The notes under the pieces: model-generated
What the model saw: the letters and a program-made list of their open reading frames with translations, nothing else
What the model was told of the DNA's origin: nothing
Database searches by the model: none
Shown here: positions 253 to 35,147 of the stretch, piece after piece
Layout of the letters: every line of letters starts with the position of its first letter
How positions within the stretch are numbered: position 1 is the stretch's first letter
NCBI GenBank assembly: GCA_049903315.1
Contig: JBNGBT010000007.1
Coordinates: 32,360-96,359, forward strand
Length of the DNA: 64,000 nt
Reading direction: 5' to 3'
Source: Candidatus Cloacimonadota bacterium
Lineage (GTDB): Bacteria; Cloacimonadota; Cloacimonadia; JGIOTU-2
Position numbers and translations under genes: made by a program

Positions 253-1896
253 ATGCATAAAAAGAAATATGAAGATCTTGTAAAGAAGTTAAGAGAGAAA
301 TATCCTGAGCGCCAGAAAGAATTTATTACAGGCTCCTCAGAAGAAGTACAACGTCTATATACACCAGAAGATACAAAAGAAATAGATTATGACAGGGATA
401 TTGGATATCCCGGACTCTATCCTTTCACGCGCGGTGTCCAGCCAACAATGTACAGAGGAAGGTTGTGGACAATGCGCCAGTATGCTGGATTCGGTACAGC
501 AGAAGAATCGAACCAACGATATAAATTTCTCCTCTCACAAGGTCAGACCGGTTTATCCATTGCTTTTGACCTTTGTACACAAATTGGGTATGATTCTGAT
601 GATCCGATATGTGTTGGGGAAGTGGGGAAGGTAGGAGTGGCAATTGACTCTCTCGCAGATATGGAAATTCTTTTTGACGGTATCCCACTTGATAAAGTAT
701 CAACTTCTATGACCATCAACGCTCCTGCTGCGATCGTTCTTGCAATGTATATAGCTGTTGCAGAAAAACAAGGCGTCGCACTGGATCAATTAACAGGTAC
801 GATCCAGAATGATATTCTCAAAGAATACATCGCTCGTGGCACCTATATATTTCCTATAAAACCTTCAATGAGGCTCATCACGAATATTTTTGAGTATTGC
901 TCGAAACATGTGCCAAATTGGAACACGATCTCCGTATCTGGCTATCATATCAGAGAAGCTGGTTCAACTGCAGCAGAGGAAATTGCATTTACTCTTGCTG
1001 ATGGTATTGCATATGTACAGGCAGCTATAGATGCAGGATTGGAAGTTGATGACTTCGCTCCCCGAATCTCGTTCTTTTTCAATGCTCAGAACGATCTCTT
1101 TGAAGAGGTTGCTAAATTCCGTGCTGCAAGGCGGTTATGGGCGCAAATCATGAAAGACAGATTTCATTCGAATAATCCTAAATCTCAAATGTTACGCTTT
1201 CATACACAAACAGGCGGCTCTACGCTTACTGCTCAACAATCCGACAATAATATCGTAAGGATCACGATTCAAGCTCTTGCAGCGGTTCTTGGAGGCACAC
1301 AATCCCTTCATACAAACTCACGGGACGAAGCACTCGCGCTTCCTACTGAGGAATCTGTTCGGATCGCACTTCGGACACAGCAAATACTTGGATTTGAAAG
1401 TGGTGTTACAAATACTATCGATCCACTCGCGGGTTCATATTTTGTAGAAAAAATGACTGAAGAAATCGAAAAAAAAGCAAAAAAACACATTCGGCGAATT
1501 GATGAACTTGGTGGAATGGTTGAAGCTATTGAAAAGGGATATGTACAAAAACAAATCCAGGATAGCGCTTACAAGTATCAGAAGCAGATCGAGAAAAATG
1601 AACGAATAATTGTCGGAGTTAATAAATTTACTACTGAAAAGGAATCACCAAAAAACTTACTTCGAGTTGATGAAAAAGTTGAACAACTACAAGTTAAAAA
1701 ATTGCACAAGATAAAAGCTCAAAGAGATGAGAAAAAAGTGCATGAAAATCTAGAAAAAATACGTAAAATTTCTCGAACTGAAGAGAACCTCATTCCGTCA
1801 ATTCTCGAAGCTGTGAAGACCTATGCCACTCTTGGTGAAATTTGTAATGTGTTACGTGAGGAATTTGGTGAATATAGCGAACAAATTGTTTTTTAA
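253..1896 (+). CDS. Methylmalonyl-CoA mutase, substrate-binding (N-terminal) subunit, split type
   Basis: [49 protein letters not shown] and [15 protein letters not shown] motifs; Tyr in RQYAG and Arg in ARGTY indicate methylmalonyl-CoA rather than isobutyryl-CoA specificity. Confidence 0.93.
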
Positions 1897-1911
1897 GAGA
1901 ATCGTAATAAT

Positions 1912-2307
1912 ATGAAAAAAATAAAAATATTAATTGCAAAACCTGGCCTTGATGGACATGACAGGGGAGCGAAATTTGTTTCTCAAGTCCTCAGGAATGC
2001 CGGTTATGAAGTCATATATACAGGCATTCGTCAAACACCAGAACAAATAGTCACTTCTGCGATACAAGAGGACGTAGATTTTCTTGGAATGAGTATCCTG
2101 TCCGGTGCACATAATGTGCTCTTCAAAAAAGTTATGGATATCCTCCGAAATGAAAATACGGATGATATAATTGTGTTTGCCGGGGGCGTTATACCTGAGG
2201 ATGATATACCGTATTTGAAATCGCTGGGTATCAAAGAAATTTTCACGCCCGGAACCTCTTCGAAAAAAATAATTGAATTTATTGAAAACAATGCATCAAA
2301 AGAGTAA
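1912..2307 (+). CDS. Methylmalonyl-CoA mutase cobalamin-binding subunit
   Basis: KPGLDGHDRG (DxHxxG B12 motif), SILSGAH, GGVIP; directly follows the large subunit. Confidence 0.93.
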   Translation: MKKIKILIAKPGLDGHDRGAKFVSQVLRNAGYEVIYTGIRQTPEQIVTSAIQEDVDFLGMSILSGAHNVLFKKVMDILRNENTDDIIVFAGGVIPEDDIPYLKSLGIKEIFTPGTSSKKIIEFIENNASKE

Positions 2308-3713: not shown

Positions 3714-4943
3714 ATGGGTAAAACAATTGTAGAAAAAATAATTCAGCTCCATTCTGAAGAAGAAGCCGTAGCTGGTAAGATAGTATGGATGAAACTCGAT
3801 GTTCGTACTGCCCGTGATTTTGGCGGACCAAATGTGGTTAAAAATTTAGAAAAACACTATCCTGACGCAGAATTGCCGGACAAAGAAAACGTATTTTTTA
3901 CTTTCGATACTGTCGCACCTGCCAAAACAATTCCTTATGCAAATAATCAGCAAATTTGCCGTGAGTTTGCGAACAAGAACGGGCTCAAAGTTTATGATGT
4001 GGATGCAGGTATCGGCACACATATTCTTATGGAAAAAGGATTTGCACGACCCGGCAGAACTCTGGTCGGAACCGACAGCCATTTTAACATTCTTGGAGCA
4101 GTTAATGCTTTTGGACAAGGCATGGGTGATCAGGATATTGCATTCGGATTCAGTACAGGGAGAACATGGTTTGAAGTTCCGGAAACCATAAAAGTAAATC
4201 TTAAAGGCACATTCTCGTATCCTGCCACAGGGAAGGACCTTGTTCTCTACATTCTTAAAAGGATCGGCAGTAAAGGGGCACTTGGCAAATGTATTGAATA
4301 TTATGGTGAGTGCTTGCAGGATTTGACTTTTTCCGATTATATAACTTTGTGCAGCATGATGACTGAAATGGGTGGTATCGTTGCATTTCCCGAGCAAAAT
4401 GCTCAAGTCAGTCAATGGCTGAAAGAACGAACAGGCGAAAATCTTCAATTCATTATTGCTGATAATGATGCTCAATATACTGAAGAAATTGAAATCGATG
4501 TTTCGGGATTACAACCTCAAATCGCATGCCCGCCAAAACCGGATAATGTTAAAGATGTTTCTGAACTTAAAGGATTAAAAGTCGGCTCAATTTTTGTGGG
4601 CTCTTGTACGAATGGTCGTATTGAGGATATGCGTTATCTTGCCGATATTCTGAAAGATAATCATGTTGCAGAAGGTATAATGCTTCGAGTCGTTCCTGCC
4701 ACACGAGAGGTTTATGGGCAAATGCTCAAAGAAGGTCTGATAGATATTCTTTTCAACGCCGGTGCTATTGTATCGAATCCGGGATGTGGCGGCTGTGCAT
4801 CAGGACAGATTGGTATGACTGGTAAAGGTGAAGTTCAAATCTCTACATCAAATAGAAATTTCAAAGGCAAACAAGGTGATGGTGAAACCTATCTGGCAAG
4901 TCCTGTCACTGCAGCATTTGCCGCAATAAAAGGGGAGTTATAA
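3714..4943 (+). CDS. Aconitase-family dehydratase large subunit (LeuC/HacA-like, atypical active site)
   Basis: GTDSH, GSCTNGR, PGCGGC and STSNRNFKG [4Fe-4S] hydro-lyase motifs; YLASP at the C-terminus. Confidence 0.88.
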   Translation: MGKTIVEKIIQLHSEEEAVAGKIVWMKLDVRTARDFGGPNVVKNLEKHYPDAELPDKENVFFTFDTVAPAKTIPYANNQQICREFANKNGLKVYDVDAGIGTHILMEKGFARPGRTLVGTDSHFNILGAVNAFGQGMGDQDIAFGFSTGRTWFEVPETIKVNLKGTFSYPATGKDLVLYILKRIGSKGALGKCIEYYGECLQDLTFSDYITLCSMMTEMGGIVAFPEQNAQVSQWLKERTGENLQFIIADNDAQYTEEIEIDVSGLQPQIACPPKPDNVKDVSELKGLKVGSIFVGSCTNGRIEDMRYLADILKDNHVAEGIMLRVVPATREVYGQMLKEGLIDILFNAGAIVSNPGCGGCASGQIGMTGKGEVQISTSNRNFKGKQGDGETYLASPVTAAFAAIKGEL

Positions 4944-4951
4944 ATAAACAT

Positions 4952-6178
4952 ATGAAGAACCTGTTTTTATTACTGCCACTGGTCATCGTTTTGTTTTCGT
5001 GCACACACAAAGACCAGGTTACCGAAATTGAAACTCCAGATCCCTACGATCATGTGTATGGAAAACTCAAAACCGGTAAATCACTTTATTCTATCCTTCT
5101 TGATAATGATATCTCCTATCAGGATGCATACAAAATCACAAAAGAGTTAAATACCCTTTATGATTTGAGATATTCACATCCAAATGATAGTTTTCATCTG
5201 AAGATTGATAGTCTCGGAGTTGTACAAATCATTGAATATTCTCCAAATAAAATTGATAAATATATTGTTGCCCGGGATTCGACTGATGAATTTGACGTAT
5301 TTCAGGAGAAGCTTGTGCTTGAAAAAGATATCCTGTTACATACGACTATTCTGAAATCATCTCTCTATGAAACATTAGTTGATGGAGGATTAGATCCGCA
5401 ATTGGTTATGAAGTTCAGTGATATTTTTCAGTGGGATATTGATTTTTTTATTGATCCCCGCGAAGGTGACACCTGCTCTATAATATATGAAGCTTTCAGT
5501 CATGATGGGGAAATCCTGAAATATGGAAATATTTTGGGAGCATCTTACCAAGGTAAACTCTTTGATCTCACTGCTTATTACTATGATAACGGCGGGAAAG
5601 AGCACGGATATTACGCCCGTGATGGTGAATCCTTCCAAAAAGCATTCCTGCGATCTCCATTAAATTACTCATACATCAGCTCATATTTTGGAATGCGGCT
5701 TCATCCGATAACAAAACAGGTATGGTTACACAGCGGTGTAGATTATGCTGCACCTCTTGGAACTCCTGTTGTCAGTTCCGCAGATGGAACAGTAATTCAT
5801 AAAGGCTGGAAGGGTGGACATCCCACGCCAAAAGGAAACACCGGAGGTTATGGCAACACTGTGATGATCCGCCATACTAACGGTTTTAAAACACTCTATG
5901 GCCACTTGAATGCGTATGCCAGAAATCTCTACGTCGGCAAACGGGTGCTTCAGGGAGAAGTGATAGGGTATGTTGGCTCAACCGGTTGGTCCACAGGTCC
6001 ACACTTGCATTACACGATCTATCAGCATGATAGCCCAATTGATCCTCTCTCACTAAATAATGTTTCGGGTCCTCCCATCCCAAAAGAATATTTGGATGAA
6101 TTCATGGATTCTGTACATCATATTGACACACTCTTCAAAGAATCGAGAAAAACGTTTCTGCAATCAATTTTTGGATAA
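4952..6178 (+). CDS. M23 family peptidoglycan DD-endopeptidase (MepM-like lipoprotein)
   Basis: Lipobox LFSC, HSGVDY (HxxxD), YGHL, STGPHLHY (HxH). Confidence 0.9.
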   Translation: MKNLFLLLPLVIVLFSCTHKDQVTEIETPDPYDHVYGKLKTGKSLYSILLDNDISYQDAYKITKELNTLYDLRYSHPNDSFHLKIDSLGVVQIIEYSPNKIDKYIVARDSTDEFDVFQEKLVLEKDILLHTTILKSSLYETLVDGGLDPQLVMKFSDIFQWDIDFFIDPREGDTCSIIYEAFSHDGEILKYGNILGASYQGKLFDLTAYYYDNGGKEHGYYARDGESFQKAFLRSPLNYSYISSYFGMRLHPITKQVWLHSGVDYAAPLGTPVVSSADGTVIHKGWKGGHPTPKGNTGGYGNTVMIRHTNGFKTLYGHLNAYARNLYVGKRVLQGEVIGYVGSTGWSTGPHLHYTIYQHDSPIDPLSLNNVSGPPIPKEYLDEFMDSVHHIDTLFKESRKTFLQSIFG

Positions 6179-6267
6179 AATGAACATGTTTGGAAAAATA
6201 GAGCATCTTAGGGATTTAATAAGCAAAAAATTTGACAGTTTATCAAGAGGAGCACGTTTTATCTATA

Positions 6268-6783
6268 ATGCAAAAGAATTGTAAAATAACTGGTAAGATT
6301 TGGCTCATTATTGACTATCAAAATACTCTTATTAATGACATTGACACTGATATGATATTTCATAATCAGTATCTTGCAATCACGGATATCAATAAAATGG
6401 GGCAATATACTTTTGATAATCTCGATGGTTGGAAAGATTTTTCACATAAAGCTCAGAAAGGTGATATCGTTGTAGTTGGGAAAAATTTTGGTGCAGGATC
6501 CTCACGGCAGCAAGCTGTAGATTGCTTTGCATCTCTTGGTATTCAAGCCATTCTCGCAGAATCCTTTGGAGCAATCTATAAAAGGAATGCTATTAACTCA
6601 GGATTACCAATCTTAACTATTACAGATATTGATCTTTCAAAACTATCACAACGGGAAGAGATCACTATTGACCTTAAAAAGGGAACTGTTTCAAATCCAC
6701 ACATTCGGATTGAACCATTTTCTAAAGTACAACTTGATATTTATCAAGCAGGCAATTTGTTTGCTTTTGGCAAAAGAAATTAG
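6268..6783 (+). CDS. Aconitase-family dehydratase small subunit (LeuD/HacB-like)
   Basis: DIDTDMI, GKNFGAGSSRQQA, AESFGAIYKRNAINSGLP. ATG at 6268 is preferred over the TTG at 6232, which coincides with a TTGACA hexamer. Confidence 0.87.
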   Translation: MQKNCKITGKIWLIIDYQNTLINDIDTDMIFHNQYLAITDINKMGQYTFDNLDGWKDFSHKAQKGDIVVVGKNFGAGSSRQQAVDCFASLGIQAILAESFGAIYKRNAINSGLPILTITDIDLSKLSQREEITIDLKKGTVSNPHIRIEPFSKVQLDIYQAGNLFAFGKRN

Positions 6784-6818: not shown

Positions 6819-9623
6819 GTGAAAGTTTGTAGTAAATTTGGACTATTACTTTTGATGTTCATGCTGCTACTGGTGAGTTCTGCATTTGGGATATTGCTTC
6901 CCAATAATGAACCTGTTGAAGGGCTGAGAGTTGAAGATGTTCCTCATGATGATGGTGGAGGGCTCATGCTGAGCTGGAAGCCTCTCCCAAAAGAAAAGCG
7001 CATCATTGAATACCGTATTTACCGCGGCTATACTCCCGATAGTTTATTCTATATCGGAAAGATCCCGGTAGATGCCAAAACAGGTGTTGCAGCTGATACA
7101 ATGAGATATATTGATCAGGGTTGGACATTTTTTGTCGATGCAACCTCACATGCCAAGCTGAAACATGAAAAGGGGCAGAAAAAAGGAACAATAGGAGCAG
7201 AAGTGCTCTTTCGTACCGTTCCTCGTGACATGAAAATCTATGGTCCTATGATGGATCATTATCGCATGCTTGCCGTTATCCCTGATAAAGAATATGTTTA
7301 TCACACGAAGATGAGAGAGTTCACTGATATTGATACAACTGAGGATGGCACTATTGATACGACATCTACGATTCTTGCAGGAATGAAACTTGAGCAGGTC
7401 AAGTATATTCTTACTAAACTGACAGTTGGTAAAGACTATTATTATGCAATTCAAGCACTCAATATGAACCGTAGTGCATCACCTCTTTCTGAAATAGCAA
7501 CTGGACAAACGGTCGATGATCCTCCAGAAAAATTAAAAGAATTCTATGCAGTTGCTGTGACCGATAAGGAGCAGCTTCAGTTCGAATGGTCGTTGCCAGT
7601 ATTTACTTCCGACCAAAAACAATTTAATATTTACCTTTATGATGAATTCGATGATCAGCATCTTATATTTACCCGTCCGGATGCATATCCATACACTCCC
7701 CAGACCAATGCTATTGTTCCTTTCGATTCTATCGCAGCACGTTTTGAAGCATTTAATTCCGCAAATATGAAGTGGTATAAATTCAATATCGGAGAACAGG
7801 ATAGACAGGATCAGGAAACCCTTGCAAAAGATGAACCTATCCCAGCTGAAATCATCACTTCTTCTATGCTGCCCAAACCTCCTATTCATTTCACCGTAAA
7901 AGATCAGCCAAATGATAAAGGTGATCAATTGCAGGTTTTCTTTGGATATCCATATTATGGTCTTTCAAAATTATCCTATAATGATGCTTTTACAAAACTG
8001 ACGGTTAATTATTTCATTACTGAAAATTCCATGTACGAAGTAGACCGACTTATCCTTTCAATCAATGGAATAACGAAAACTGAATATGTGCTTGATAATA
8101 AACTCGATTTCAAGGTCAATTGGGATTATAGTAAGCCAATGAAGATCACAGGAAGTTTTGTCTGTAAACATAAAGGACAAGCACCCTTACCGGAAGATTA
8201 TACAATAACTCATACCTTTATTTTTGATCAGGAAATGCAGGTGGTCCTCGTTGACACTCCTCCTAATGAGCAGATGAAGGAATTTGAAGATTATTACTTC
8301 CAAGTTTACAAGATAAATCATACAAGTGATGTGTATAGATATGCAAAACAGATGTCTTTTAGAGAGCGGGAATATATAGATAAAGTGTCATATGAAACCG
8401 TTCAATTTCGTGGAAGACCCCGTTTCTCTCTCGAAGAAAAGCGACTTTATTTCAGTACATATTTAAGCATTGAAAATTATAAAGATCAGTATCCCTTCTA
8501 CACTCAAGCGCTCTATCTCGATCAACTCAAACAACAGGATGAAGAAATTAAAGAAGAAATCGCAAAACTACAAGCAGAGTTAGAAACCGAAACTGATAAA
8601 GTAGAGATAGAGAAAATTGAAGATCGTATAGATCTTTTCACTGATTATCTTAATGAAAAACCAGCGATCGTCAAAGAAGCAAATCTCTTAAATACTGATA
8701 AAGAAAGAATGAAAATGCTCTATGATGTTCATTGCAAAAATATTCGTTCTTTCAAATATTATATCAGAAAGACTGACGGACGAGGGCACTTTATCGATAC
8801 TCCTGTATATACAGATCCTAATGGCGAACAGTATATCTCTCCCAAACAGAATTGGTTCAACACTGATGAAATAATCACTTTCATTGCAGTGCTTTTATTT
8901 GGAGCGCTCGTGTACTTTATGATCAAAGCAGCGCGCAAAGGAAAGAGGTTATATATCAGACCTATCGCAGGTATTCAGGAGATTGATAATGCGATTGGAC
9001 GAGCTACAGAAATGGGAAGACCAATCCTCTTCGTTCCAGGTTTAAGCGGCATCAGTGACGTGGCAACACTTGCAGGATTAGCGATTCTTAGCAAAGTTGC
9101 GAAGAAAGCTGCTGAATACGACACAAAAATACTCGTTCCATGCCGCGATTTCATCGTACTTCCTATTGCTCAGGAAACTGTAAAAGAAGCACACTATGAA
9201 GCTGGTCGTCCTGATACGTATGATAAAAACAGCGTATTCTTCATCACACAAGCACAGTTCGCTTTTGTAGCTGGTGTGAACGGCATAATGATTCGTGAAA
9301 AAACAGCAACGAACTTCTATATGGGAATGTTCTGGGCTGAATCTCTTCTTATGACAGAAACCGGAAGTATGACAGGTGCAATTCAGATTGCTGGAACTGA
9401 TGCAGTCAATCAGCTGCCTTTCTTCATCACAACATGTGACTATACTCTTATTGGCGAAGAACTCTATGCAGCAAGCGCTTATCTCTCAAATCAACCGCTG
9501 ATTCTTGGTACTCTCAAAGCTCAAGACTATATGAAACTGATTATTGTTCTTACCGTGATCCTTGGCACTATCCTCTCAACTGTTCACCTTACGTTCTTTA
9601 TGAACTGGTTCCCGACCAAATAG
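6819..9623 (+). CDS. Large membrane-anchored protein: signal peptide, Fn3-like extracytoplasmic repeats, coiled coil, C-terminal DUF6754-type domain
   Basis: AGGAG RBS and GTG start; hydrophobic N-terminus; repeated V.D.P.D.G..L motif; TM helix then IRPIAGIQEIDNAIGRATEMGRP...LPFFITTCDYTLIGEELYAASAYLS, recognised from memory as DUF6754. Confidence 0.7.
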   Translation: MKVCSKFGLLLLMFMLLLVSSAFGILLPNNEPVEGLRVEDVPHDDGGGLMLSWKPLPKEKRIIEYRIYRGYTPDSLFYIGKIPVDAKTGVAADTMRYIDQGWTFFVDATSHAKLKHEKGQKKGTIGAEVLFRTVPRDMKIYGPMMDHYRMLAVIPDKEYVYHTKMREFTDIDTTEDGTIDTTSTILAGMKLEQVKYILTKLTVGKDYYYAIQALNMNRSASPLSEIATGQTVDDPPEKLKEFYAVAVTDKEQLQFEWSLPVFTSDQKQFNIYLYDEFDDQHLIFTRPDAYPYTPQTNAIVPFDSIAARFEAFNSANMKWYKFNIGEQDRQDQETLAKDEPIPAEIITSSMLPKPPIHFTVKDQPNDKGDQLQVFFGYPYYGLSKLSYNDAFTKLTVNYFITENSMYEVDRLILSINGITKTEYVLDNKLDFKVNWDYSKPMKITGSFVCKHKGQAPLPEDYTITHTFIFDQEMQVVLVDTPPNEQMKEFEDYYFQVYKINHTSDVYRYAKQMSFREREYIDKVSYETVQFRGRPRFSLEEKRLYFSTYLSIENYKDQYPFYTQALYLDQLKQQDEEIKEEIAKLQAELETETDKVEIEKIEDRIDLFTDYLNEKPAIVKEANLLNTDKERMKMLYDVHCKNIRSFKYYIRKTDGRGHFIDTPVYTDPNGEQYISPKQNWFNTDEIITFIAVLLFGALVYFMIKAARKGKRLYIRPIAGIQEIDNAIGRATEMGRPILFVPGLSGISDVATLAGLAILSKVAKKAAEYDTKILVPCRDFIVLPIAQETVKEAHYEAGRPDTYDKNSVFFITQAQFAFVAGVNGIMIREKTATNFYMGMFWAESLLMTETGSMTGAIQIAGTDAVNQLPFFITTCDYTLIGEELYAASAYLSNQPLILGTLKAQDYMKLIIVLTVILGTILSTVHLTFFMNWFPTK

Positions 9624-9637
9624 AAAGGAGTATCATA

Positions 9638-10261
9638 ATGAAAAGACAAATACCTTTATTTATAGTTTTGATACTTGGTTTACTTTTCGTAGCTCATGTA
9701 TTTATTCCAAGCAAGCTCTCTTCTGACTACCTTGACTGGTTCATGAAATGGACGAAAGTCATTGGTCCTTTCGCAATCGTACTTGGTGTATTCAGTCTTG
9801 TACTTGTACACTATAATAAAATAAAACGTAAAGCTCCAAACTGGGGATATAGTATTGTGACACTTGCAGCGTTGGTGATAACAACATCGGTTGGCTTCAT
9901 CTGGGGTATCCAGGAGGGTACTCCATATATGTGGATTTTTGAAAACTTCAATGTTCCACTCGGGGCGACTATGTTCTCATTGCTGGCTTTTTATATAGCA
10001 TCTGCAGCATACAAAGCGTTCCGTGCTCGATCTGTCGAAGCAACTGTGCTGCTTATCGCAGCTATAATTGTCATGCTTGGTCGTGTTTCCATCGGACAGG
10101 CAATTACTCATTGGATTCCGGACATTACAGAATGGATCCTTAATGTTCCTAATCTCGCAGCTAAGCGCGGTATTGCGCTTGGTGTAGGACTTGGTATGAC
10201 TGCAACGTCCCTTAAGATCATGCTTGGGATTGAGCGATCATATCTTGGTGGAAGGGATTAA
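9638..10261 (+). CDS. Conserved hypothetical polytopic membrane protein (about 6 TM)
   Basis: AGGAG RBS; multiple hydrophobic helices; TMFSLLAFYIASAAYKAFRARSVEATVLL segment. Confidence 0.75.
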   Translation: MKRQIPLFIVLILGLLFVAHVFIPSKLSSDYLDWFMKWTKVIGPFAIVLGVFSLVLVHYNKIKRKAPNWGYSIVTLAALVITTSVGFIWGIQEGTPYMWIFENFNVPLGATMFSLLAFYIASAAYKAFRARSVEATVLLIAAIIVMLGRVSIGQAITHWIPDITEWILNVPNLAAKRGIALGVGLGMTATSLKIMLGIERSYLGGRD

Positions 10262-10270
10262 GGGGGTATA

Positions 10271-11224
10271 ATGAAATTCGCAGATAGTATTCAAAAAGTA
10301 GATAGAAGAATAATCTATGGAATCCTTGCCATTGCAGTCATTCTCCCTCTGGTTTTCCGTCTTGGATTAAAGACCTATACAACCACACCTGTTGAAGACT
10401 TATATCGTCACATTGACGCTGCTGCCGGTAAAGATGACATGGCAATCCTTATGGATTTCACACATGACCCGGGCGTCCTTCCAGAGTTATATCCTATGGA
10501 CCTGGCAATCCTCAGACATTGTTTTCAAAGGAATATCAAAGTATTCACGATCTCATTCCTTCCGCAGGGAGCAGCAATTATTCAATTGGCACTTTCTGAA
10601 GTAAAAGAAGACTACCCGAACATTGAAGCTAATGTTGATTATTGCAACTTCGGTTTTAAGCCATGGAGTTTGAAACTTCCTATTATGCTTGGTATGGGTG
10701 ATGATATTGCAGAAGCGGTTGAAACAAACAGTGAGGGACTCTCGCTTGAGAATCTTCCTATTATGCAGAATCTGAAAAATTATGATAACATACAAGTTGT
10801 TGTAGAGATTTCAGGTTCTTCAATGGGGCAGTTCTGGGTTACGTATGCACGCGCAAAATTTGGTGTTGATGTTGCAGTTGGTCTTACAGCGGTTATGGCT
10901 GCAGACGTGTATCCTTTCCTGCAGACTGGTCAATTTGTTGGTAGTCTTGGCGGGTTGAAAGGTGCCGCAGAGTATGAGCAGCTTGTAGATATCTTTGCGA
11001 TGAATGGTACTGAGTTCAGCAAGAAAAATGCACGTAATATGGCGTGGGTCGAAGCACAATATGAAGAGTTGCCGGAATTAGCAAAACTCTATAAGTATAA
11101 TAAAGCTCGTATCGGCATGGATGCACAGGCAATTGTTCACGTTCTTATCATTCTCTTCATTATTCTTGGTAATATTGGCTACTTTCTTGATCGACGTGCA
11201 CAGAAAAAAAAGTTTGGTAAATAA
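10271..11224 (+). CDS. Conserved hypothetical membrane protein (terminal TM helices, central soluble domain)
   Basis: DRRIIY plus TM at the N-terminus; GGLKGAAEYE; MDAQAIVHVLIILFIILGNIGY C-terminal TM. Confidence 0.75.
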   Translation: MKFADSIQKVDRRIIYGILAIAVILPLVFRLGLKTYTTTPVEDLYRHIDAAAGKDDMAILMDFTHDPGVLPELYPMDLAILRHCFQRNIKVFTISFLPQGAAIIQLALSEVKEDYPNIEANVDYCNFGFKPWSLKLPIMLGMGDDIAEAVETNSEGLSLENLPIMQNLKNYDNIQVVVEISGSSMGQFWVTYARAKFGVDVAVGLTAVMAADVYPFLQTGQFVGSLGGLKGAAEYEQLVDIFAMNGTEFSKKNARNMAWVEAQYEELPELAKLYKYNKARIGMDAQAIVHVLIILFIILGNIGYFLDRRAQKKKFGK

Positions 11225-11234
11225 GGAGTAAAAA

Positions 11235-11834
11235 ATGACTGAAACAATTGGAATCTGGATTGCTGCATTTTTGACACTCTGCATGTTTTCTTTCCTGTAC
11301 AAGGATAATCCTTTCTACAAATTTGCAGAGCATCTCTTCGTAGGCGTTTCGATGGGTTATTATATTCCTTATACATTTTATAATGCCTTCATACCGTACG
11401 CATACGAACCTTTGTTCCTAAAAAAGGAATACATTCTTATCATACCCTTTATCATTGGTATCATGTATTGGTTCAGGTTTTCTTCAAAATATAGCTGGAT
11501 CAGCCGCTATCCCATTGCGTTTGGCATGGGTATAGTTGGTATGGGTGTTCCAATGGGTATGCATGCAAATGTGCTGGTACAAATGAGGACTATGATGCTC
11601 CCCCTCAATAATATCAACATCATATTGATTTTTGTCGGAACGATCAGCATCTTATTGTATTTCTTCTTCTCCAAAGCCCATAAAGGGGTGTACGGAAAGT
11701 TCACGTCCATTGGTATCTGGTTCATGATGGTCGGATTCGGAGCATCCTTCGGTTACACTGTGATGGCTCGTATCTCGCTACTCATTGGACGAGTGCAATT
11801 CCTTCTTGGTGATTGGTTAGGATTGATAAAGTAA
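11235..11834 (+). CDS. Conserved hypothetical polytopic membrane protein (about 6 TM)
   Basis: AGGAG RBS; SFLYKDNPFYKFAEHLFVGVS and GFGASFGYTVMARISLLIGR segments. Confidence 0.75.
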   Translation: MTETIGIWIAAFLTLCMFSFLYKDNPFYKFAEHLFVGVSMGYYIPYTFYNAFIPYAYEPLFLKKEYILIIPFIIGIMYWFRFSSKYSWISRYPIAFGMGIVGMGVPMGMHANVLVQMRTMMLPLNNINIILIFVGTISILLYFFFSKAHKGVYGKFTSIGIWFMMVGFGASFGYTVMARISLLIGRVQFLLGDWLGLIK

Positions 11835-11849
11835 AAATTCTCATTATAT

Positions 11850-11894
11850 AAAAGCACAAAGATTATGATAGGATGTCATGGCTTTGTGCTTTTT
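11850..11894 (+). terminator. Intrinsic terminator ending the membrane-gene cluster
   Basis: AAAAGCACAAAG...CTTTGTGCTTTT inverted repeat with a G-U-containing inner stem, followed by a T-rich tail. Confidence 0.7.
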
Positions 11895-11905
11895 CTTCTT
11901 TGAAC

Positions 11906-12937
11906 ATGAAAAGAAAAATAATTCAAATCGGATTTCTCATAATACTTCTCGTCGTAATTTATGTGAGGATCTCACACGAGAAAAGCAAACCAATTAAGGA
12001 AACGCGTTTTGCACTCGGTACTTTTGTAACCATAGATATTCAAGAAAGAAATAGGCATAACAATGCAATTATTGATTCCGCATTTACGCTTATTCAAACC
12101 TTAGAAAAGCAGTTCTCACTTACGTATCTTAGAAGTGAGACCAACAAAATAAATATTTGTAAAGATTCAATACACATCTCAGAAGATATGCAGGACTTGC
12201 TGCAAATTGCACACCAGACAAGCAAGGAGACCGAAGGTGCATTTGATGTGACAGTAGGCAAGATAATATACATGTATGATTTTGTTGATGAAATCATGCC
12301 CACAGCCGAAGAGATAGATTCTGCTCTTTTTTTTGTTGGACATGAGAAAATTGTCTGTAACAATGATAATTTCATCAAGGATGATCCAGAAATTTTCATT
12401 GATCTCGGAGGAATAGCAAAGGGATTTATCGTTGATAAAGCTATTCGATATATAATAGAAAATGGCATAAATTATGCGGCAATAAATGCAGGGGGCGACC
12501 TCTTTGTGTTGAGTAATCCAGAGACAGAAACCTGGAAGATTGGCATTCAACATCCCCGAAATCAATCAGCATTATTTGGTTCGATCGAAGTCAAAGATAG
12601 GGCTGTAGTAACTTCCGGAGATTATGAACAATTTTTTATAAAAGAGGGAAAGCGTATTCATCACATTATCGATCCCAAGACCGGACTTCCTTCCTATAAT
12701 TCTGTGAGTGTTACTGTTATAGCACGAAATGCTACAATTGCAGATGCATTATGTACAGCACTTTTTGTGATAGGACCAAATCTGGGCATCAAACTTGTGG
12801 ATCAGAAAGTTGATATCGAAGCGCTTATTATTTTTGAACAAGATGGGGAACTTTGCTATGTTATTTCAGATAATTTTGACAAATTTAACTTCACTTTGTT
12901 AGACTCAACTGCACTTTTTATAAAGGATTTGCAATGA
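11906..12937 (+). CDS. apbE: FAD:protein FMN transferase
   Basis: GAFDVTVG, DLGGIAKG, INAGGD, VTSGDYE, HHIIDPKTG, ADALCTA. Start moved to MKRKII because the upstream extension overlaps the terminator. Confidence 0.92.
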   Translation: MKRKIIQIGFLIILLVVIYVRISHEKSKPIKETRFALGTFVTIDIQERNRHNNAIIDSAFTLIQTLEKQFSLTYLRSETNKINICKDSIHISEDMQDLLQIAHQTSKETEGAFDVTVGKIIYMYDFVDEIMPTAEEIDSALFFVGHEKIVCNNDNFIKDDPEIFIDLGGIAKGFIVDKAIRYIIENGINYAAINAGGDLFVLSNPETETWKIGIQHPRNQSALFGSIEVKDRAVVTSGDYEQFFIKEGKRIHHIIDPKTGLPSYNSVSVTVIARNATIADALCTALFVIGPNLGIKLVDQKVDIEALIIFEQDGELCYVISDNFDKFNFTLLDSTALFIKDLQ

Positions 12938-30328: not shown

Positions 30329-30691
30329 ATGGCAGATGTTATAGTAGAAGTTTCAAAAGATGATGCCCATGAATTAATGGACAGAACGGCAAAATTCATT
30401 GCTGAAAGACGCATGGGTTCTGCTGCGATTTTATTAATAGAATCACTAAAGCCGTTGAATTTTATTGCGAGCCAGATCCTCTATATGATCGCTCCTTTTG
30501 CAGAGCTCATATTTAAGCCGGAAGAATATCAAAAATTTGCATGTTCCCTTGAAAATAGAGATAATGTAAAATATCTTATCAATAAGATTGACGAAGAGGA
30601 TGCAAATTTCCATAGAGAGTTGAAAGCTGAAAAGAAAAAAGCAAAAGAATTGAAAAAGAAGAAAAAATTATTAAAAAATAAAGTGAAATAA
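30329..30691 (+). CDS. Conserved hypothetical protein with Lys-rich tail
   Basis: AILLIESLKPLNFIASQ segment; tightly packed between comF and the GlmL-like gene. Confidence 0.7.
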   Translation: MADVIVEVSKDDAHELMDRTAKFIAERRMGSAAILLIESLKPLNFIASQILYMIAPFAELIFKPEEYQKFACSLENRDNVKYLINKIDEEDANFHRELKAEKKKAKELKKKKKLLKNKVK

Positions 30692-30703: not shown

Positions 30704-32602
30704 ATGGCAAAAGAGCTACGTTCAATATTGGCTACCGACTGTGGTAGCACAACAACGAAAGCCATATTAATTAAGAAAATCGATGATGTATATCGTTTGA
30801 TCGTACGAGGTGAAGCACCAACAACAGTGGAAGCTCCCTTTGATGATGTGACAAAAGGTGTTCTGAATGCGGTCGAAGAAGTTCAGGACCTCGTTCATAT
30901 TCGAGGAGAAAAAGATAGGTCTATCATCAAAGATGAAACAATAGAAGTACCTCAGGATGGCGATAAAGGTGTTGATGCATATGTGTCTACGAGCAGCGCC
31001 GGTGGGGGACTTCAAATGATGGTTGCCGGCGTCGTAAAAAGCATGACTGGTGAAAGTGCAGAACGTGCAGCACTCGGTGCAGGAGCTATTGTTATGGATG
31101 TGCTTGCAAGCAATGACAAGCGCCTTCCTCACCAAAGGATCGAAAGAATACGGCATCTGCGTCCCGATATGATACTTCTGTCAGGAGGTATCGATGGGGG
31201 AACGACCAAGCATGTGGTCGAACTCGCAGAGATTATTGCTGCTGCAGATCCCAAACCCCGTCTTGGATCAGAATACAAATTACCAGTCATCTATGCGGGA
31301 AACAAGGACGCTCGTGATGCAGTGAAAGAGACACTGGGGAGCAAGGTCGATCTTATCATAACAGATAATATCCGACCTGTGCTTGAAAGAGAAAATCTCG
31401 GACCTGCGCGTGATAAAATACACGATCTTTTTATGGAGCATGTGATGGCTCAAGCGCCAGGATACAAAAAGCTTATGGCTTGGGCGAGGGCAGAAACAGA
31501 AAACGGAAAAATCGAAGAAGTGCCTATCATGCCTACACCTGGAGCTGTCGGAAACATCATGCAGACAATTGCGCGGCTGGAAAACATCGAGGTCGTGGGT
31601 GTGGATATCGGCGGAGCTACAACTGATGTCTTTTCGGTGTTCTCTGAGGATAAAGTATTCAACAGAACAGTAAGTGCAAACCTGGGAATGAGTTATAGTA
31701 TTTCAAACGTGCTCGCTTCGACAGGTATAAAAAATATTTTACGCTGGGTGCCTTTCGATATTCCGGAAACTCAACTGCGTAATATGATCAAAAATAAAAT
31801 GATCAGGCCTACCACGATTCCTTTCCTTGCAGAAGAACTTATGCTGGAACAGGCAATCGCAAAAGAAGCGCTTCGTCTTGCTTTTGAACAGCATAAAGAA
31901 TTTGCCGTTACTCTGAAAGGCACACAGAGAGAAAGAGAAATTTCTGAAGCATTCTCGCAATCAACATCAGGTGAAACAATTGTAAATATGATGACTCTTG
32001 ATATATTGGTTGGCAGCGGTGGTGTACTTTCTCACGCACCTCGAAGAAACCAGTCTGCGATGATGATGATCGATGCATTTCTTCCCGAAGGCATCACACG
32101 CCTTGCGGTTGATAGTATATTCATGATGCCGCAGCTTGGTGTACTGTCAACGATCAGTGAAAAGGCAGCACAAGAAGTATTTGAAAGAGATTGTCTTATC
32201 CATCTAGGAACCTGCATCGCGCCAAAAGGTAAGTATAAACAAGGTAAAACAGCGCTTAATGCGAGGATCGAACTGCCAAATGGAGAGATCTACGAAGAGA
32301 GTATCCCGTTTGGAGAGATCGTCAGATTGAATCTTGGTGTTGGTGAAAATGCAAAAGCAATTTTAAAACCATCAAGTGGATGCGATCTTGGTACAGGGAA
32401 GAATACTGAAGTTGAAACTACGATTTCTGGTGGTGTTGTTGGTATTATTATTGATACTCGCGGAAGAGAATTGTATTTTGATGAAAAGCTGAACAAAGAA
32501 ACAATGAGCGCTCATATTCCATCGGATAATGCAGCACGAGTCGAATCGTTGAAAAAGTGGATGAAAGCTCTCGAAGTCTATCCCCAAGAATGGTTATCAT
32601 AG
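30704..32602 (+). CDS. GlmL/MutL (glutamate mutase accessory) family actin-like ATPase
   Basis: Phosphate-1 loop DCGSTTTKA, TSSAGGGL, LSGGIDGG, YAGN, MPTPGAV, phosphate-2 loop VDIGGATTDVFS, RTVSANLG, GSGGVLSH. Confidence 0.85.
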   Translation: MAKELRSILATDCGSTTTKAILIKKIDDVYRLIVRGEAPTTVEAPFDDVTKGVLNAVEEVQDLVHIRGEKDRSIIKDETIEVPQDGDKGVDAYVSTSSAGGGLQMMVAGVVKSMTGESAERAALGAGAIVMDVLASNDKRLPHQRIERIRHLRPDMILLSGGIDGGTTKHVVELAEIIAAADPKPRLGSEYKLPVIYAGNKDARDAVKETLGSKVDLIITDNIRPVLERENLGPARDKIHDLFMEHVMAQAPGYKKLMAWARAETENGKIEEVPIMPTPGAVGNIMQTIARLENIEVVGVDIGGATTDVFSVFSEDKVFNRTVSANLGMSYSISNVLASTGIKNILRWVPFDIPETQLRNMIKNKMIRPTTIPFLAEELMLEQAIAKEALRLAFEQHKEFAVTLKGTQREREISEAFSQSTSGETIVNMMTLDILVGSGGVLSHAPRRNQSAMMMIDAFLPEGITRLAVDSIFMMPQLGVLSTISEKAAQEVFERDCLIHLGTCIAPKGKYKQGKTALNARIELPNGEIYEESIPFGEIVRLNLGVGENAKAILKPSSGCDLGTGKNTEVETTISGGVVGIIIDTRGRELYFDEKLNKETMSAHIPSDNAARVESLKKWMKALEVYPQEWLS

Positions 32603-32611
32603 GAGGTTCAC

Positions 32612-33736
32612 ATGGCACAAGCATATACTCCCGGATTGACAATAACAAAAAGTATTATTCTGAGAAAAGATAGAATCCTTCCTCTCAAAGGTGAAGTTGT
32701 GGTAAAAGTAGGGGACAAGGTCACTGCAGATGACAATGTCGCAAAAACCGATTTACCAGGTGACGTTATCGCAATCAATATCGGCAATAAACTCGGAGTC
32801 CCGCCCTCTGATGTTTTGTCAAAAATGCAGAAAAAAGAAGGTGAAAAAATAAAAAAAGATGAACCTCTCGCAATGAGCCAGAGTATGTTCGGTCTTTTTA
32901 AATCTATTGTGAAATCACCGATTACCGGCACAGTCGAGAATATTTCGAGTATCACAGGACAAGTTCTTCTTCGAGAACCTCCGGTCCCAATAACCGTGAA
33001 AGCATTTATTGATGGCGTCGTCAGCAAGGTTTATGAAAATGAAGGCGTCCAGATAGAGAATAAATCTGCCTATATACAGGGAATCTTCGGCATTGGTGGT
33101 GAGATTACTGGTGAAATCAAAGTTCTTGTTGATGGACCAGATGCCGAACTCCTGCCTGAACAGATTGATAATTCATGTAAGGATAAGATCATAGTGGGCG
33201 GTTCTATGGTGCGCCTGCCGGCTATTAAGAAAGCAATTCAAGTTAATGCAAAAGGCATTGTTATAGGCGGTATTGATGACCAGGATCTTAAAGACCTGCT
33301 TGGCTATGATATCGGTGTTGCAATAACCGGACATGAGGAGATTGGGTTGACTCTCGTTCTCACAGAAGGTTTTGGCCCAATTAAAATGGCTGCAAAAACG
33401 TATGAAATATTAAAAGAATTCGAGGGTTATAAGACTTCCATGCACGGCAAAACCCAGATCAGAGCCGGTGTGATGAGACCAGAGATAATTATTCCAATTC
33501 CATTTAAAGAAGAAGAGTTGAAAGCCAAAGAGAAAGAAATCTCAGGACTGAAAATTGGTAGTATAATTCGAATTATCCGAGAACCTCATTTCGGAGAGAT
33601 CTGTGAAGTGACGGCACTTCCCGAAGAACTTGTTGTAGTTGAATCTGAAACAAAAGTGCGTGTACTCAAGGCAAAAATGGACGATGGCATTGAAGTTACA
33701 GTTCCACGTGCAAATGTTGAAGCTATTGAAGATTAA
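32612..33736 (+). CDS. Hypothetical protein: barrel-sandwich-hybrid repeats, alpha/beta core, C-terminal KOW/SH3-like domain
   Basis: VKVGDKV..DD.VA, KKEGEKIKKDEPLA and KSPITGTV (RnfC/lipoyl-like hairpins); KGIVIGG; TEGFG; TQIRAGVMRPEIIIP; LKIGSIIRIIREPHFG. Confidence 0.7.
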   Translation: MAQAYTPGLTITKSIILRKDRILPLKGEVVVKVGDKVTADDNVAKTDLPGDVIAINIGNKLGVPPSDVLSKMQKKEGEKIKKDEPLAMSQSMFGLFKSIVKSPITGTVENISSITGQVLLREPPVPITVKAFIDGVVSKVYENEGVQIENKSAYIQGIFGIGGEITGEIKVLVDGPDAELLPEQIDNSCKDKIIVGGSMVRLPAIKKAIQVNAKGIVIGGIDDQDLKDLLGYDIGVAITGHEEIGLTLVLTEGFGPIKMAAKTYEILKEFEGYKTSMHGKTQIRAGVMRPEIIIPIPFKEEELKAKEKEISGLKIGSIIRIIREPHFGEICEVTALPEELVVVESETKVRVLKAKMDDGIEVTVPRANVEAIED

Positions 33737-33803: not shown

Positions 33804-35147
33804 CTAAAACTCTGTTCCGCTTGAGAAATTAAAATTACTGATTTTCATTGCAGGAACAAGGAAACCACCGCCAAAGAAAGCACCTGCGATCTCAGCAGTA
33901 TCTCCAATCTCTTCTATATTTGAGAAAATATTAATAACACTATCCGTAAAACGCATGTTCTTCAGAGGTTTAGTTATCTTGCCATTCTCTACCATAAAGA
34001 ATCCGTCTCGCGTCATACCAGTTACTAACAATGCAATAGGATCGATAATATTTGAATAGTGGAAATGAGTGACCAGCACACCTTTTTCGGTATTCTTGAT
34101 CATTTTTTCGACCGAACTCTTTCCTGTTTCAAACCTCATTGCAAAAGGATATGCTGCTTGTGTGGGTAGTGGGATTGCATGTCCGTTATTCTCGACACCT
34201 GTCTCTTTTGCAATCCACCTATTCGTTGCAAAACCTTTAGGAATACCTTTGTGAATGAGCGTCATTGGCTTCACGGGCATTCCCTCAAAATCAAAGGGCT
34301 GCGAGCCGATAATAGGACTATAGGGATCTTCAAAAACATTGAGTTTTTCTGAAAACACTTTTTTATTCAATCCATCTTTGAGGAAAGATGTTCCTTCGAT
34401 ATAGTCCATGCCGTTGAATCCTCTCCACAGAAGGAAAAGAACAAATTCAGCTACTGCTGCCGGCTCCATTATGACAGTATATTTTCCGGGCTTCAAATTC
34501 TCAGGATATTTGCTCTTCAGCGCTTTTTCGACCGCTATATTTCCCGCTTTTTCCACATCGATCTGACGAACATCCTTTTTGATGATCTCATGCCAACCGG
34601 AAGCAGCGCCATCCATTGCGGTAATACTAAATTCTGCGTTCGTAGAGATATCATAAGCAAAAAGTCCTTTGCTGTTTGCAAGTGCAATCTCAGAGGTTGA
34701 GTTTGAAAATATTCCTGCTCCCTCAAGATTGTTTTTCTTGCATATATTGACTGCTTTTGTAATACTTTCTGCACGCTGCTGTGGTGAAAATTCATCAGTA
34801 GATTTGCAGAAATTATCAACCTTTTGATATTTCTGCTGTTTCGGAAGTGGAAGAAGTTTATCATTATCTCTTTGCATTCTTGTCGCATCAATAGCCGCTT
34901 GAAGTGTTTGTTTAAGGGAATCATCATCTAATTTATTCGTGGTCGCAGTTGCAGTTTTTTTACCTATGATCGTTCGTATCCTGATATGATAGGATGTATC
35001 GCTTACATTTTGATGTATATAATTATCAGCATATCTTGTAAGCGCACTTTTATTTTTAAAGATCATGACCTCAGTTTCAACTTCTCGGGAAAGAGAACAA
35101 ATTTTCTGGGCTAATTCCCGCATCTCTGCGATATTATTCTGTCTCAT
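33804..35147 (-). CDS. TldD/PmbA family protein (PmbA/TldE-like)
   Basis: TRYADNYIHQNV, PGKYTVIMEPAAV, PFDFEG, TGMTRDG.F.VENGKI..P..NMRF; no HExxGH catalytic motif. Confidence 0.85.
   Translation of the reverse strand: MRQNNIAEMRELAQKICSLSREVETEVMIFKNKSALTRYADNYIHQNVSDTSYHIRIRTIIGKKTATATTNKLDDDSLKQTLQAAIDATRMQRDNDKLLPLPKQQKYQKVDNFCKSTDEFSPQQRAESITKAVNICKKNNLEGAGIFSNSTSEIALANSKGLFAYDISTNAEFSITAMDGAASGWHEIIKKDVRQIDVEKAGNIAVEKALKSKYPENLKPGKYTVIMEPAAVAEFVLFLLWRGFNGMDYIEGTSFLKDGLNKKVFSEKLNVFEDPYSPIIGSQPFDFEGMPVKPMTLIHKGIPKGFATNRWIAKETGVENNGHAIPLPTQAAYPFAMRFETGKSSVEKMIKNTEKGVLVTHFHYSNIIDPIALLVTGMTRDGFFMVENGKITKPLKNMRFTDSVINIFSNIEEIGDTAEIAGAFFGGGFLVPAMKISNFNFSSGTEF

Follow-up and report, generated by a model that had tools for sequence, protein, structure and literature searches.

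The ATP-driven transporters known so far use ATP-binding cassette (ABC), P-type, rotary or secretion ATPases. Here we describe a candidate seven-gene system from a 64,000-nucleotide stretch of DNA (the window) of Candidatus Cloacimonadota bacterium (GenBank assembly GCA_049903315.1, contig JBNGBT010000007.1), which comprises a four-gene membrane operon, A-B-C-D, and, 19 kb away, a second module, S-G-H, predicted to encode an ATPase of the actin fold (Table 1). Our preferred reading, with a probability of about 0.4, is that the seven proteins form an ATP-driven, pseudo-symmetric importer with swappable A receptors. Such a system would resemble group II energy-coupling factor (ECF) and ABC importers in having one energising set and several scattered membrane modules, but the P-loop ATPase, EcfT, S-component, permease and binding-protein families of Pfam and NCBIfam are absent from the seven genes. 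Nor did the membrane subunits match any TRAP, TTT, MFS or PTS family (Pfam and NCBIfam, with PDB sequences for B and D).

On the ATPase side, G shares its fold family and both ATP-binding motifs with GlmL/MutL and Or-4 (PF13941, NF040745, NF040744, TIGR01319), but is longer than these models (632 versus ~450 amino acids), always accompanies H, usually accompanies A-D, and here occurs in a genome in which no glutamate mutase was found. A second comparison is with the glycerol/diol dehydratase reactivase, in which an Hsp70-like ATPase is reported to be combined with a swivelling domain and ATP to be used to swap a partner subunit (PMC7674605). G and H would share this build with GdrA/DdrA, a lead drawn from sequence comparison. 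However, neither has a PDB sequence match to a reactivase, and reactivases have no membrane module.

On the membrane side, B and D recall RnfA/RnfE and NqrD/NqrE in being a pair of ~200-residue proteins with about six helices each and predicted opposite orientation; in addition, H contains a barrel like that of RnfC_N/NqrA_N, and an ApbE gene follows D in the window. Against this likeness, there is no family match to Rnf or Nqr, no flavin or Fe-S subunit recurs, ApbE was found at none of 147 loci, and the alignments of B (77 rows) and D (58 rows) show no cysteine in any invariant or near-invariant column. Nothing thus points to redox-linked ion pumping; an earlier, sequence-only reading of the window had entertained a transporter or an ion-translocating enzyme complex. 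The RCK domains of Trk, Ktr and MthK and domain III of transhydrogenase are likewise Rossmann-like domains tied to a membrane, and they match our models with Z scores of 8.3-9.5, but these scores are no higher than those of unrelated Rossmann folds and one of our two domains is predicted to lie outside the cell. Finally, A is a full member of DUF6754 (PF20539), a family without an assigned function that spans only the tail of A, whereas B, C, D, H and S belong to no named family.

The membrane operon and the ATPase module

The sequence-only reading had singled out A-D as four closely spaced genes with strong ribosome-binding sites, and this description holds: the A/B, B/C and C/D gaps measure 14, 9 and 10 nt, AGGAG or AGGGGG precedes every start, and the peptide motifs it quoted (DNPFYKFAEH, MARISLLIGR, KAFRARSVEA, GAAEYE and IGEELYA) are all present in the translations. 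The strong terminator it placed after D probably corresponds to a 19-pair hairpin (11851-11892, -19.5 kcal/mol) followed by a U-rich tail, although the hairpin is missing from the output of a consensus terminator scan. Gene A starts only 35 nt after the upstream gene and, since this spacer contains no conspicuous promoter or terminator, the 5' end of the transcript is not fixed. Contigs of relatives, mostly less than 90% alike, span most of the operon in three metatranscriptome assemblies (word share 0.06-0.07); these are assembled contigs, which say nothing on expression level or on a single transcript.

The same genome (G000) contains a second A-B-C-D set outside the window (G000:C33:204364-207724, minus strand) with a short A; its proteins of 383, 231, 280 and 213 amino acids are 57, 45, 32 and 47% identical to their counterparts in the first. 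Elsewhere we examined the best 80 of 620 loci from a genome collection and a further 80 metagenome loci (names beginning with L below denote single loci). The genes indeed co-occur, the order A-B-C-D being found at 68/68 genome loci with downstream room, a tally in which a few open reading frames (ORFs) with over-long called starts swap two letters, and at 49 of the 50 metagenome loci with room. With the order repeated elsewhere in the genome and at 117/118 other loci with room, the four-gene set is beyond chance.

The operon is not the self-contained four-gene complex that had been supposed, for A-D travel with S-G-H. H lies immediately 5' of A at 53 of the 69 loci with room, 47/80 loci carry the complete series S-G-H-A-B-C-D, and an alternative order, S-A-B-C-D-G-H, is also seen. 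Among 534 genomes of four phyla, 211 contained both A and H and 318 contained neither, so that 529/534 agree and five are discordant. Both genes occur in 144 of the 151 genomes of the phylum to which this bacterium belongs, in 21/131 from the phylum of a Nitrospira genome (the same 21 for each gene, adjacent in all), in 45/151 from that of a Scalindua genome and in 1/101 from that of a Binatia genome. In four genomes of its own phylum the match to H is weak (E 4e-36 to 3e-5) and may represent a divergent class only, and the six that lack both A and H all belong to a single genus and therefore count as one loss. In three planctomycetes with a split operon, G-H-A stay near one another, H and A side by side, while B lies elsewhere; because these three cohere when B separates, A is hinted to be the contact for G-H. 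Taken together, we consider it very probable that A-D and S-G-H constitute one system.

DUF6754 was found in none of 14 well-known control genomes, and no match was found in plasmids or phages. The titles of the best 80 of the 620 loci name about fourteen further groups, including Nitrospirota, Planctomycetota (Scalindua, Brocadiaceae), Latescibacterota, WOR-3, Sumerlaeota, Zixiibacteriota and Binatia, but no archaea. The earlier impression that the set recurs in diverse anaerobes is thus right as to the many bacterial phyla, but 'anaerobic' is too narrow: Nitrospira are aerobic nitrifiers, and Nitrospira loci carry the full operon. DUF6754 proteins fall into 2207 clusters at 50% identity. B and D are 59-70% identical to those of same-type modules and 40-49% to those of the other type (43-56% and 31-32%, respectively, for C). 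Since B, C and D track the type of module rather than the genome, the modules are old and their subunits have kept together. Broken frames, from decay or sequencing error, were noted at L091:6565-13371 (G, B, C and D) and L116:6762-8138 (C).

Table 1. Coordinates of the system's genes and associated features in the window.
Feature	Position	Strand	Description
Gene A	6819-9623	+	934 aa, GTG start
DUF6754 domain of A	8841-9611	+	Residues 675-931; Pfam PF20539
Gene B	9638-10261	+	207 aa; predicted to have six membrane helices and an inside N-terminus
Gene C	10271-11224	+	317 aa; Rossmann-like domain, predicted outside, flanked by two membrane helices
Gene D	11235-11834	+	199 aa; predicted to have five to six membrane helices and an outside N-terminus
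Hairpin and U-rich tail	11851-11900	+	Probable intrinsic terminator
Gene S	30329-30691	+	120 aa, no family; leads the seven-gene operon in other phyla
Gene G	30704-32602	+	632 aa; long GlmL/MutL-like actin-fold ATPase (PF13941, E 1.5e-125)
Gene H	32612-33736	+	374 aa; partner of G with barrel-sandwich hybrid, probable swivelling domain and KOW-like tail

ATPase G and its partner H

ATPases of the ASKHA (actin-fold) group are recognised by a phosphate-1 motif, DxGxT, and a phosphate-2 motif, DxGG. In G the corresponding stretches, D12-G14-S-T-T-T-K and D301-I-G-G-A-T-T-D, are invariant in 28/28 aligned sequences; by fold family and both motifs, G is classed as an actin-fold ATPase. Membership of PF13941 might also suggest an ordinary helper of a B12-dependent mutase, like GlmL, that happens to lie near unrelated genes A-D, and indeed a methylmalonyl-CoA mutase is present in the window (253-2307, identified by eye) and in 4/5 other genomes tested. 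However, G scores under every GlmL/Or-4 cut-off (214 versus 475 bits for NF040745, 200 versus 600 for NF040744 and 164 versus 204 for TIGR01319), glutamate mutase E (PF06368) was not found in G000, which is 96% complete, or in five other genomes, and no glutamate mutase lies beside G in 80 loci. Genome G381 has G-H-A with no match to three mutase families, where the blank for one of them, the ornithine/lysine aminomutase family PF09043, is weak: it was found in 0/5 genomes but also in 0/14 controls. The helper explanation also leaves the common operon and the joint presence of the two modules unexplained, and we regard it as largely refuted.

H contains a barrel-sandwich hybrid in 33/43 members and a KOW-like tail in 7/43, with a weak match to an RraA-type swivelling domain (E 0.06). 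G additionally has weak matches to Hydantoinase_A (E 7e-5) and Hydant_A_N (E 2.5e-4), which, together with the many invariant polar residues of A's inner domain, would fit a vectorial enzyme that chemically alters its cargo on entry, G acting as a kinase or as an ATP-dependent hydrolase like its hydantoinase/oxoprolinase relatives. H, however, has neither an invariant histidine for phosphorelay nor an invariant lysine at the lipoyl/biotin position, and pathway genes do not recur nearby. We consider such an enzyme improbable.

Besides G, the genome contains one other PF13941 match, a divergent 968-residue G-H fusion outside the window (G000:C69:15210-18116, minus strand; L027) that is 37% identical to G; like the C-D fusions described below, it counts in favour of our model. 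At many loci (27, plus 7 more matched; for example L028:3864-4301, L034:5892-6317 and L108:12868-13371) S is immediately preceded by a gene for a 140-170-residue protein with two membrane helices and no family, possibly an eighth subunit. Here the corresponding gene is at G000:C69:131850-132278 (minus strand), between genes that by eye are yicC-like and RNase R-like. A gene of the PmbA/TldD peptidase family converges on H (33804-35147, minus strand), and a similar gene, by eye, is found near A at L099:7552-8898.

Putative receptor region and predicted membrane topology

The earlier description of A, an exported region followed by a membrane helix and a soluble domain, is correct as far as it goes but overlooked a second helix at the C-terminus (residues 907-925). 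A begins with a signal peptide and an exported region of ~660 residues, with two FN3-like starts and a coiled stretch, after which PF20539 matches over its full length (model positions 1-257 of 257; E 2.8e-120, 400.7 bits against a cut-off of 27). This DUF6754 portion comprises a membrane helix, a Rossmann-like domain predicted to be cytoplasmic, and a membrane helix; its AlphaFold model has a six-stranded domain between the two helices (pLDDT 89.8, pTM 0.82). It is also the most conserved stretch of the membrane module, and no large insert was found in the inner domain among 130 sequences.

The outer region is far more variable, ranging from 42 to 1083 residues among 150 representatives, so that some copies of A (258 amino acids) are almost devoid of it. 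Operons with such a 258-residue A are preceded by a gene for a membrane-anchored protein of 675-1272 residues with no Pfam match (L108:13390-15417, L109:13034-16564, L111:3201-5774, L112:9081-12899), which could be a separate receptor. A D-x-P-x-D-x-G motif occurs in the outer region of 82/150 representatives, as against 0.6% of shuffles, with two copies in the present A. Pfam scans of three pieces of the outer region of this A gave no match; among 79 representatives scanned, nine had a BamB-like propeller, three FN3 and one, possibly a chimera, half a TctC domain fused to DUF6754. Several A genes can accompany a single ATPase set: four of five long-module loci of relatives have a second long A after D without a B-C-D of its own, and complete genomes have one to three A genes alongside one canonical S-G-H.

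A constant core with variable outer domains might also be expected of a receptor system, in which A and C detect a ligand outside the cell, B and D relay the signal, and G-H serve as an ATP-dependent switch on an intracellular target. The KOW-like and RraA-like matches of H would suit such a role, and the combination of ATPase and swivelling domain recalls the chaperone-like glycerol dehydratase reactivase (PMC7674605). Yet those matches fall under significance, no regulator, kinase or sigma factor recurs among the neighbours, and twelve oppositely oriented membrane helices would exceed the needs of signalling. We think a receptor unlikely.

B, C and D matched no NCBIfam family and, above cut-off, no Pfam family, and a PDB sequence search that used profiles for A, B, C, D, G, H and S returned nothing at E < 0.05. 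C matched 4163 proteins, its homologues being named as hypothetical proteins of Cloacimonadota; in the ESM Atlas C matched only unnamed clusters and B had no usable named match, with no models for either. A model of C and D was obtained from P0272, a natural C-D fusion of another phylum, with an alignment of 39 rows (16 C and 20 D sequences). In this model (pLDDT 74.9, pTM 0.58) the C part has its helices and strands in the same order as the tail of A, plus two inserts, and the D part, modelled less confidently (block pLDDT 42-85), forms three helix pairs, each with one short and one long member. P0272 itself resembles a lost stop codon and P0273 a frameshift, which makes both weak as evidence of fusion. 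Foldseek found no match to the A-tail or C-D model at E 0.001. In the VIA lists both soluble domains have generic Rossmann matches only, with 14 of the top 50 entries in common; the best are phosphoglycerate kinase and sirtuins for A, and MT0777 and TrkA (9.3) for C. In line with the sequence-only reading, comparison with Pfam, NCBIfam and PDB sequences, and with PDB folds in the case of the two soluble domains, thus gave no characterised complex that the set matches.

Charge bias predicts that the A domain is inside (signal peptide, helix, then KAARKGK) and the C domain outside (RR ahead of helix 1, RR-KKK behind helix 2), with the N-terminus of B inside and that of D outside. Large inserts fit this topology, both in B (147-390 amino acids at residues 89-97, three cases) and in D (233-331 amino acids at residue 125, two cases), as do a PKD domain behind the second helix of A in L115, consistent with an outside C-terminus, and an extra membrane helix between C and D in the C-D fusion P0275. 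Mean column conservation inside and outside is 0.73 and 0.40 for A, 0.66 and 0.43 for B, and 0.64 and 0.39 for D, with 0.53 for the outer domain of C. The topology at the C-terminus of D is uncertain, because its last 22 residues are conserved like inner loops. The models thus give the tail of A and C the same Rossmann-like layout, predicted to lie on opposite membrane faces, and B and D appear to be six-helix proteins of opposite orientation. In one D homologue, P0274, the predicted outer loop contains a ComEA-like helix-hairpin-helix and a CheB-like piece.

The fold matches and the conserved arginine, glutamate, serine and threonine residues at or within the helices of B and D would also accommodate a gated channel or ion pump with RCK-like gating by the two Rossmann-like domains and ATP control by G: RCK, TrkA and KtrA are among the top matches of both domains. 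These matches, however, tie with kinases, sirtuins and dehydrogenases, neither B nor D has a Pfam, NCBIfam or PDB sequence match to TrkH/KtrB or a K+ channel pore family, and conserved metal ligands are lacking. Several modules with differing large outer regions would, moreover, be hard to square with one ion. We consider a pump or channel unlikely.

A tentative importer and its surroundings

We favour the importer reading because it uses most of the evidence. The inverted halves are a typical trait of alternating-access transporters, and to them are added outer domains that vary, an inner domain that does not, and an ATPase dedicated to the system. The membrane part would consist of A-D and the cytoplasmic part of S, the ATPase G and its partner H. 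A+B and C+D would form two oppositely oriented halves, whose Rossmann-like domains would lie, one per half, on different faces of the membrane. Cargo, at a guess a peptide or other polymer fragment, would be captured by the variable outer region of A together with the outer domain of C and follow a path lined by B and D. G-H would dock on the highly conserved inner domain of A, and their use of ATP would switch the halves between outward-open and inward-open. A single S-G-H set would be shared among several A-D modules and A subunits. The sequence-only reading had cast C as the coupling subunit; with C predicted to face outward, the cytoplasmic coupling domain would instead be the DUF6754 of A.

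Several points weigh against an importer. There is no sequence homology between A and C or between B and D (hhalign probability ~1%) and no significant internal repeat, so that the pseudo-symmetry is a prediction from model layout and topology rules, with D modelled at low confidence; the Rossmann-like matches of the A and C domains are generic (best Z 10.0), and the fold lists show no transporter fold, which, D having been scarcely probed, does not demonstrate its absence. Support for the reading is drawn from genes and single-chain models. The divergent G-H class has no A-D alongside in 7/7 loci (L126-L132). Of the five discordant genomes, two contain G and H while missing A and B (G069, G414), two contain A while missing G and H (G328, G404), and G374 lacks H only, with G at a contig edge; all five could reflect assembly gaps. 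The 534 genomes also include kin, which are not independent, and so represent far fewer gains and losses. As to cargo, peptide-ABC genes occur in only 15/160 loci, mostly of one phylum, no metabolic or pathway neighbour recurs at the genome and metagenome loci, and no riboswitch was found in 17 sources. Finally, nitrifying and anammox autotrophs carry the system, a poorer fit to organic uptake.

The autotrophs would sit better with a machine for export or envelope assembly, for which the outer region of A would be the scaffold and which would move or anchor a protein, a lipid-linked unit or a surface polymer. Near-universality in its own phylum and the fixed housekeeping position of S-G-H, which lie behind the same purine-synthesis and comF-like genes (named by eye) in 7/7 loci, point the same way, as do the FN3, PKD and propeller domains, which are often structural. 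The actin-fold ATPases PilM and FtsA work in envelope machines. On the other hand, no glycosyltransferase, pilin, secretin or substrate gene recurs near the module, and a scaffold is hard to reconcile with copies of A that have almost no outer region. We regard such a machine as unlikely.

Immediately 5' of A (3714-6783) lie genes for the large and small subunits of an aconitase-family enzyme, with an M23 peptidase gene between them; these lyase/aconitase-like genes were not seen next to eight modules of relatives. The ApbE flavin transferase gene follows the terminator (11873-12937), its likely start being the ATG at 11906 because the longer ORF start falls within the hairpin. A link between ApbE and the system was rejected on the locus count given above, and its position here is attributed to chance. 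A MEMO1-like gene with an N-terminal extension is found immediately 3' of D (for example L096:11964-13214); its 22 loci are all Nitrospirota by title, and it was set aside as lineage synteny. In two Latescibacterota loci, peptide ABC genes are inserted between G and H (L062:4041-5882, L097:4083-8396). An Rfam RT-14 RNA (L141:11668-11809) beside a reverse-transcriptase-like gene near one module is unrelated to the system.

Of the seven proteins, only A and G bear family labels, neither with a fitting function, and no description of it was found in the literature, subscription papers and supplements (for example of Nitrospira and anammox proteomics) lying outside the search. It has been overlooked because it is missing from all 14 well-known control genomes. 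With slightly less confidence than in the importer itself, we suggest a new class of primary active transporter, in which an actin/Hsp70-fold ATPase drives an inverted four-subunit core with swappable receptors in at least fifteen mostly uncultured bacterial groups. A compact seven-gene operon in Nitrospira-type genomes and near-universal in its own phylum, the system provides a shared context, open to testing, for the thousands of proteins that now bear a DUF6754 or GlmL-like label. Under the rival readings too it would still be an undescribed machine, and, if our reading is true, an actin-fold ATPase that powers a membrane machine would mean that ATP can be coupled to transport, or to signalling across the membrane, in a new way.

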